NCBI GenBank assembly: GCA_951406725.2
Contig: OX597816.1
Span: 132,618,001-132,682,000, forward strand
Origin: Octopus vulgaris
Lineage: Eukaryota
Direction: 5' to 3'
DNA length: 64,000 nucleotides
The notes beneath the pieces were generated by a model that worked only from the letters and a program-made list of their open reading frames with translations, was not told the DNA's origin and made no database searches. Shown here one piece after another: positions 50,662 to 51,241 of the stretch. Every line of letters begins with the position of its first letter. The first letter of the stretch is position 1. The position numbers and the translations under genes are program-made.

Positions 50662-50771
50662 ATACAACATATACAGCAATATTTATTCTAAAATTGGAAT
50701 GATACAGAGAAGATTAGTATGGCCCCTGTGTAAGGATGACACACAAATTTGTGAAGTATTCCATATTTTTT
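50662..50771 (+). pseudogene. U6: U6 snRNA retrocopy 2 (5' end decayed)
   Basis: TATTCTAAAATTGGAATGATACAGAGAAGATTAGTATGGCCCCTGTGTAAGGATGACACACAAATTTGTGAAGTATTCCATATTTTTT. Confidence 0.9.
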
Positions 50772-50773
50772 CT

Positions 50774-50936
50774 GGTGCAGGTATGGGTGTGTGTTAAGAA
50801 GCTTACTTCCCAACCACATGGTTCCAGGATCAGTTCCACAGTGTGGCACCTTGGGCAAGCGTCTTCTACTATAGCCTTAGGTTGACCAAAGCCTTGTGAG
50901 TGGATTTGGTAGATGGAAACTATATGAATGTATATA

Positions 50937-51019
<83 letters not shown>

Positions 51020-51241
51020 CTGTGTGTTTGTGTTTTGTCCCTCCACCATCACTTGACAACCAGTGTTGGTGAGTTTATACCAGCTTAATGTTTTGGCAAA
51101 AGAGACCGACAGAATCGGAACCAGGCTTATAAAGAATAGGTCCCAGGATCGGTTTCCTCAACTAAAATCCGTTAAGGTGGTGCTCCAGCATGGCTTCAGT
51201 CAAATGACTGAAACATGCAAAAGAATAAAAGAATAAAAGAA
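50774..51241 (+). mobile_element. tRNA-derived CORE-like SINE fused to U6 copy 2
   Basis: GGTGCAGGTATGGGTGTGTGTTAAG head begins 2 nt after the U6 T-run; tail (AAAAGAAT)n. Confidence 0.85.

Follow-up and report, generated by a model that had tools for sequence, protein, structure and literature searches.

Two U6 snRNA copies joined to the front of a common SINE in Octopus vulgaris, with independent formation favoured

Two copies of U6 snRNA, each followed directly and in the same orientation by a member of one common SINE family, stand in the 64,000-nucleotide stretch of Octopus vulgaris DNA analysed here (the window). By the features compared they are U6/retroposon chimeric pseudogenes, a class already known in vertebrates: in both (2/2) the U6 3′ end is complete with its T-run and U6 lies 5′ of and co-oriented with the SINE, and copy 1 has a single outer duplication with none at the junction (an ATAT pair, together with an empty site). 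We infer that both U6 copies are pseudogenes, inactive retrocopies joined to the front of the SINE. Independent formation of the two chimeric retrocopies is favoured, rather than proven, by the sequence comparisons.

The two loci and their setting

Only two matches in an Rfam scan of the window exceeded the gathering score, and both were U6: 41650-41756 (-), copy 1, with 107 bits, and 50669-50770 (+), copy 2, with 94.5 bits, against a cut-off of 44 bits for RF00026. The remaining 76 of the 78 matches were below the gathering score, lay without exception on microsatellites and were dismissed. An HMM built from copies 1 and 2 gave no third U6 copy in the window at better than E 0.12, and five weak matches (E 0.12-3.9) and two 3′-end look-alikes were rejected as U6 copies; U1 and U2 had no match in the window at E up to 1. 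The two U6 arms are inverted relative to each other, 8947 nt apart, in repeat-rich surroundings 13 and 22 kb past the last exon of Ral GAP beta. The 3′ exons of this gene, encoding Ral GTPase-activating protein subunit beta, lie at 5705-28407 (+) and mostly match the Octopus reference at 96-100%; the exon at 18342-18599 matches a protein named as O. sinensis with 100% identity over 80% of the query and that of O. bimaculoides with 96%. Read by eye, the sequence upstream of copy 1, where a functional U6 gene would have its PSE/TATA promoter, is an older, split repeat and that upstream of copy 2 is microsatellite. The parts of the two loci are as follows, A and B being subfamily labels coined in the present analysis.

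41130..41298, minus strand: right part of the older repeat split by copy 1, beginning with duplicated ATAT (41298-41295); 76-84% to six other copies
41299..41649, minus strand: copy 1 SINE, assigned to subfamily A by TAAGTAGC and its short tail segment, and internally deleted where the head ends; head profile and alignment
41650..41756, minus strand: copy 1 U6, full-length, with paired 5′ stem (outer stem 5/5 pairs) and T5 end; Rfam 107 bits
41757..41786, minus strand: left part of the same older repeat, ending in duplicated ATAT (41760-41757); 83-87% to four intact copies
50664..50683, plus strand: copy 2, of uncertain boundary: a putative U6 5′ stem-loop, decayed (nt 1-20), or else filler; register match to copy 1
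50684..50771, plus strand: copy 2 U6 core, nt 21 to the 3′ end, with intact ACAGAGA box and T6 end; Rfam RF00026 94.5 bits, 82/87 identical to copy 1
50772..50922, plus strand: copy 2 SINE head of subfamily B type (GGTATGG, TAAGAAGC, TTCCC); nhmmer 161 bits, model positions 2-151, and alignment
50923..51014, plus strand: copy 2 SINE internal (AT)n(GT)n tract; direct reading
51015..51242, plus strand: body and tail of the copy 2 SINE, in which the long-form segment is present and AAAAGAAT repeats run to 51242; BLAST to other copies and alignment
51243..51251, plus strand: candidate right-hand target-site duplication of copy 2, in microsatellite context

The profile of the SINE head finds 23 copies in the window, 17 of them with a near-intact 5′ end. 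U6 stands in front of two only, 21 of the 23 heads being without it, and both U6-joined SINEs begin at model position 2. Under uniform placement, given 15 further intact heads across the window and with target preference left aside, such an adjacency would arise by chance with a probability of about 7e-4 per U6 copy and about 5e-7 for both. The junction of copy 1 reads CCATA-T5, followed by A and the SINE head; in copy 2, CCATA (50761-65) is followed by T6 (50766-71), CT (50772-73) and then GGTGCAGG of the head. A preliminary description had reported the plus-strand U6 with T6-CT running into the same SINE family, and direct reading, the Rfam score of 94.5 bits and the head profile all bear this out; the three shared U6 strings and the SINE subfamily segments that it quoted were likewise found as stated. 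Its further claim that the two junctions differ is correct as to T5/A against T6/CT, but the difference is small, given that U6-less copies of the SINE themselves start with TAGG or CAGG/CAAG. In T5+AGG and T6+CTGG alike, U6 may be joined to the bases with which the respective subfamily begins.

A motif scan places box-like motifs at +12/+55 of the SINE; in the head of copy 2 an A-box-like motif stands at +13 and a damaged B-box-like motif at +56. In the window ARAGORN found 0 tRNA genes, and Rfam gave no tRNA match. The tail of the SINE, which may be RTE-like, matched only other copies of the SINE when searched against the window. The octopus CORE SINE is called OR2 in the accessible text of PMC4758252.

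Other repeats in the window deserve a brief record. Two SINE copies stand tail to head at 48802-48010 (-), the second starting in an AT run just after the tail of the first, and the SINE at 36411 is preceded by an apparent short inverted piece of its own head (36411-36440, -). A second abundant repeat family with a (GAT)n end, represented by more than 20 BLAST pieces in the window, lies on both sides of copy 2 (51253-51390, 50225-50366, 49959-50095 and others), and long (CAT)n and (AT)n tracts occupy 63340-63860 and 38540-39100. ORF remnants at 1131-1478, 6177-6467, 47463-47762, 58438-59130 and 2782-3159 look by eye like mariner transposase, hAT transposase and LINE reverse transcriptase; Pfam gave no match at E 0.01 for any of the ten candidate ORF remnants in the window (10/10).

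Integration of U6 and SINE

At copy 1, U6 and SINE integrated as a single insertion. Both halves of the older repeat are matched by four other copies, one with a small insertion further on, and the halves are contiguous in all three copies aligned (3/3) as the empty-site comparison; copy 1 thus splits an otherwise contiguous repeat and has ATAT at both outer ends, which means that U6 and SINE entered as one unit. It is the empty site that carries this case, because the 4-bp duplication is weak when taken alone, being equalled by 1862 of 20,000 random flanks. The copies of the older repeat (41130-41786, 42058-42237, 33082-33262, 17061-17253, 45318-45448 and 62209-62389) start with TTAA-CCCTTT, and their ends are presumably piggyBac-like. 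Copy 1 keeps the 5′ stem-loop and the core of U6. Its SINE is without the last ~30 bases of the head and without the (AT)n tract (41531-41520, -), a deletion that appears to join two TGAGTG-like words.

A 72-codon frame is open through the U6 and the SINE head of copy 1 (41548-41766, -), with no sign of being a gene. A search of 5.8 billion proteins with this frame left 339 out of 346 candidates, and in the best 120 of these no score exceeded 64 bits, a level that U6 accounts for by itself. Among the best 150 of 1096 matches from 1.84 billion representatives there was no high-identity stretch over the junction, with a few weak extensions across it at 57-63% identity; PDB sequences gave 0 matches. 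The antisense frame of copy 2 had no candidate in the protein set searched, which indicates that the SINE is poorly represented there and that the negative protein searches tell little. Two exact-pattern scans for octopus carry-over in prokaryotic genome contigs returned 0 and 0.

Copy 2, too, likely integrated as one piece. Its U6 has lost the 5′ stem and carries three C-to-T changes in the central part, and it is either a decayed full-length U6 or a truncated U6 with filler. In register with nt 1-20 of the copy 1 U6, positions 50664-50683 agree in 8 of 20 letters and in 17 of 20 purine/pyrimidine classes, a measure picked post hoc and equalled by 120 of the 127,086 20-mers of the window and by 4 of 1476 local ones. 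Between 50664-50683 and 41737-41756, three places differ as former-CpG-like states (TG/CA, CG/CA, TA/CA); a single CpG-rich stem would then have decayed separately in the two copies. The left partner of the candidate duplication depends on where the 5′ boundary is set: ATATACA at 50669-75, TATATACA at 50659-66 or ATAT at 50660-63. ATATACA recurs at 51245-51, a 7-mer agreement equalled by 395 of 20,000 random flanks and by 2 of 56 non-cognate pairs; were copy 2 full-length, only ATAT/TATAT inside the microsatellite would be left as its duplication. With either 5′ boundary, the target-site duplication of copy 2 is suggestive only.

Sequential insertion, in which a U6 pseudogene came first and a SINE then targeted the ATAT near its 3′ end, would draw on the density of SINE heads (23 in 64 kb), on the preference of the SINE for AT-rich sites, illustrated by the 9-bp (AT)n duplication of the copy at 43128, and on the CCATAT with which U6 ends. 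It is nevertheless very improbable: the U6 end is not duplicated behind either SINE, in both copies the T-run separates ATAT from the start of the SINE, and U6 and SINE of copy 1 stand together inside its outer ATAT pair. No duplication was found at the U6/SINE junction of either copy, by an insensitive test that gave a target duplication for one of six U6-less SINE elements.

Origin of the two joins

The SINE parts point to two separate joining events. By alignment, copy 1 has the A letters and the short tail segment and copy 2 the B letters and the long segment, and both subfamilies have U6-less relatives in the window. Against three U6-less copies the copy 1 SINE reaches 85-86% identity in the head and 86-89% in the tail; against the SINE of copy 2 it reaches 80.5% and 76.9%. 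A clade of copies 1 and 2 is rejected with eight elements (head and tail, p-AU 0.010) and with 15 heads (p-AU 0.002), and is not rejected once 52 CpG-type columns are masked (p-AU 0.082); these trees hold 8 and 15 of the 23 heads, fragments being omitted, no branch is starred in any of them, and 0% of bootstrap trees join the two copies. Because the SINE parts come from different subfamilies, the joining would have occurred twice, and the B letters, present from about the eighth base of the copy 2 SINE, indicate that its head was not transferred from copy 1.

The preliminary description had called the flanks unrelated and had argued against a local duplication, and both points stand: the 3-kb flanks of the two copies have no collinear similarity, sharing dispersed repeats only, and the SINE subfamilies differ. 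Proximity and common U6 variants are what a segmental duplicate would display, but with non-collinear flanks and different subfamilies the probability that one locus was copied from the other is close to nil. Repeated joining or a long-lived U6-headed lineage had been offered as joint alternatives; the AU tests favour the former, and the latter is disfavoured.

Such a lineage, a SINEU-like master amplified as a unit through both SINE subfamilies, would account for junctions within 2 nt of each other, for shared U6 variants that include one non-CpG change, for unusually similar cores and for the CpG-masked tree, in which the clade stands unrejected. Pol III stops at a T-run, and transcription from the own boxes of the SINE starts downstream of U6; in a master element the T5/T6 run would stop Pol III, and SINE-box transcription would begin downstream of the U6 head. 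Two of the three trees reject the clade, and 21 of 23 heads without U6 form the pattern that the accessible text of PMC4494074 gives for independent template switching. SINE/U and SINE/U-L1 families whose U RNA is unnamed stand unexplained in the accessible accounts of O. vulgaris libraries and would fit a master lineage; on balance we regard that reading as distinctly improbable.

The likeness of the U6 cores is a complication for independent joining. Between copies 1 and 2, 5 of 87 core sites differ, and for the SINE parts the figure is 54 of 294 non-CpG sites (Fisher p 0.004); over 77 core sites, private-change rates of 9/230 and 26/255 lead to about 11 expected differences, against 3-5 observed (p 0.003-0.03). 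Diverged SINE templates, thin subfamily sampling or local conversion could each explain this likeness. Three shared U6 differences from the Rfam consensus sit on its CG dinucleotides, a fourth sits on a putative CG site of animal U6, and the TATTCT change common to both copies is non-CpG. Among copy pairs of the SINE, 300 of 911 have the same decayed state at CpG-type columns, and the corresponding CpG-decay null gives p 0.20 for three of five shared sites and 0.043 for four of five. The shared variants are not decisive on origin, since three lie at CG dinucleotides and CpG decay in the same direction is common. With the shared states, the 32-38:94-100 helix has 7/7 pairs in both copies and the 77-80:87-90 hairpin 3/4 and 4/4, counts that are descriptive only, as the folding energy of the U6 copies is not better than that of shuffles (z -0.20 and -0.67). 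Most simply, at least some of the shared letters would belong to octopus U6 itself.

Local gene conversion between the inverted U6 arms could also have homogenised the cores after insertion and would be compatible with independent origin. The arrangement of the arms, inverted and 8947 nt apart, would suit it, as would the contrast between 5 differences in 87 core sites and 12 in the in-register 5′ 20 nt; those 20 nt may, however, be filler or microsatellite-invaded, and native octopus U6 variants are a simpler account, the shared changes keeping helices paired. Conversion is in our estimate improbable by a wide measure.

As to how independent joining came about, we hold it an evenly balanced proposition that both loci are chimeric retropseudogenes formed by a jump of reverse transcriptase from SINE RNA to U6. 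At a nicked site rich in AT, a LINE reverse transcriptase would prime on the tail of the SINE RNA and, at the 5′ end of the full-length SINE RNA, would jump to the oligo-U 3′ end of U6 snRNA. U6 and SINE would then integrate together with a short flanking duplication, as shown for copy 1 and likely for copy 2; this would have happened twice, with two SINE subfamilies, and the copies, without the U6 upstream promoter, would decay as pseudogenes. Where joining accompanies each insertion, read-through of the U6 T-run is not needed. The complete 3′ ends, T5 and T6, fall within the 4-8 T described for U6/L1 junctions in the accessible text of PMC6789731. Because the two U6 cores resemble each other more closely than the two SINE parts do, this reading requires an extra assumption, for example SINE templates that were already diverged.

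A primary Pol III transcript bears a 5′ triphosphate, and this counts against the alternative of joining at the RNA level, in which RtcB would ligate the 2′,3′-cyclic phosphate of U6 to a 5′-OH SINE RNA before retrotransposition and which we regard as a tenable but unlikely route to independent chimeras. The clean junctions with complete T5/T6 would suit ligation, and no untemplated bases are needed if the A and the C belong to the SINE. Such ligation has been shown biochemically for human U6/L1 and U6/GFP; it needs a 5′-OH, and in the accessible text of PMC6789731 its products have variably truncated partners and RtcB made 0 of 26 full-length joins to 5′-triphosphate RNA, whereas both SINEs here start at their first bases. 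The jump is favoured over ligation because both partners are 5′-full-length and RtcB failed on 5′-triphosphate RNA. From DNA the two cannot be told apart; joins at the very first bases of a SINE nevertheless offer a test case between them, because RtcB should be unable to ligate a primary Pol III transcript.

Frequency and relation to known systems

Two U6/SINE chimeras in 64 kb correspond to 31 per Mb (95% range 3.8-113) in a window selected as odd, in a calculation that took the octopus genome to be 2.7 Gb. The high genome-wide frequency that the preliminary description read from the two cases is therefore unproven, though not refuted, set against about 0.15-1.4 per Mb computed from published octopus counts of all snRNA-type repeats. 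At the published densities, two copies within 9 kb are unlikely, at 7e-4 per window, and at 0.59 per Mb about 19 windows of 64 kb should hold two by chance. In the accessible text of PMC8967140, the snRNA and SINE/U classes make up 0.041% of 2,572,483 classified repeats in O. vulgaris (about 1050 copies, all snRNA kinds) and 0.009% of 3,637,615 in O. bimaculoides (about 340 copies). That of PMC13282606 gives 369,490 bp of SINE/U and 52,753 bp of SINE/U-L1 in a 2.8 Gb O. vulgaris assembly, a total of 422,243 bp or at most about 3,900 U6 lengths. As far as the accessible parts of these sources state, the counts are automated labels, with pieces below 100 bp dropped in one study, and U6 heads that were merged into other consensus sequences could have escaped them. 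The accessible parts of PMC9795677 and PMC6962438 hold no U6 count for octopus; for mammals, Table 2 of PMC4476161, in the part available, gives 253-2849 U6 matches per genome.

A bolder reading would have full-length RNAs of the dominant SINE capped with U6 precisely at the 5′ end, very often and over several subfamily waves, some products perhaps forming a self-propagating U6-headed lineage; we consider this unlikely. If it were true, a sizeable share of intact SINE copies would be U6-headed (2 of 17 here) and hidden by automated libraries, and octopus might harbour a SINE lineage headed by U6, the first of its kind, its U6 being a variant with changes that leave the helices paired. Should the copies number thousands, octopus would be the best system for studying the addition of small-RNA heads to SINEs, and its U6 gene annotation would need cleaning; should they number hundreds, as the published class counts suggest, the chimeras would be an ordinary by-product.

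No description of octopus U6-SINE chimeras was found in the open-licence literature; such elements could be present in bioRxiv supplements or in the archive of PMC13282606. In the accessible text of PMC13282606 and PMC8967140, snRNA-headed repeats are already flagged in Octopus as the class labels SINE/U and SINE/U-L1, and the present loci may or may not be among these families. Crocodilian SINEU elements (accessible text of PMC4494074) resemble them in a recurrent snRNA at the SINE 5′ end, probably gained by template switch. SINEU heads are U1 or U2 and are amplified from master copies, whereas the octopus head is U6 and most relatives are headless; membership in SINEU is ruled out by the U6 head and by the 21 of 23 heads without U6.

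With placental U6/L1 and U6/Alu chimeras, as the accessible texts of PMC4476161 and PMC6789731 describe them, the octopus loci share a T-run joined directly to the retroposon and one outer duplication. In U6/L1 the L1 part is variably 5′-truncated, with duplications of 6-19 bp at the L1 endonuclease site, and Alu partners are rare; in octopus U6 is joined to a tRNA-like SINE whose tail has short repeats and whose target is AT-rich, and the U6/L1 subtype is ruled out by a SINE that begins at model position 2 in both copies. Chimeras of U6 and SINEs are known from platypus (Mon-1), Anolis (AnolisSINE2) and opossum (RTESINE1), and in the accessible part of PMC4476161 they, too, have U6 co-oriented at the front of the SINE, short duplications (1-9 bp in platypus) and sometimes a 5′-truncated U6. 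The octopus loci differ from them in their cephalopod host and in two SINE partners, of two subfamilies, that are both 5′-full-length, a length that this part of PMC4476161 leaves unstated for the vertebrate SINEs. With the octopus loci, U6 chimera formation, surveyed so far in vertebrates in these sources, extends to a mollusc and to a SINE partner of full length.
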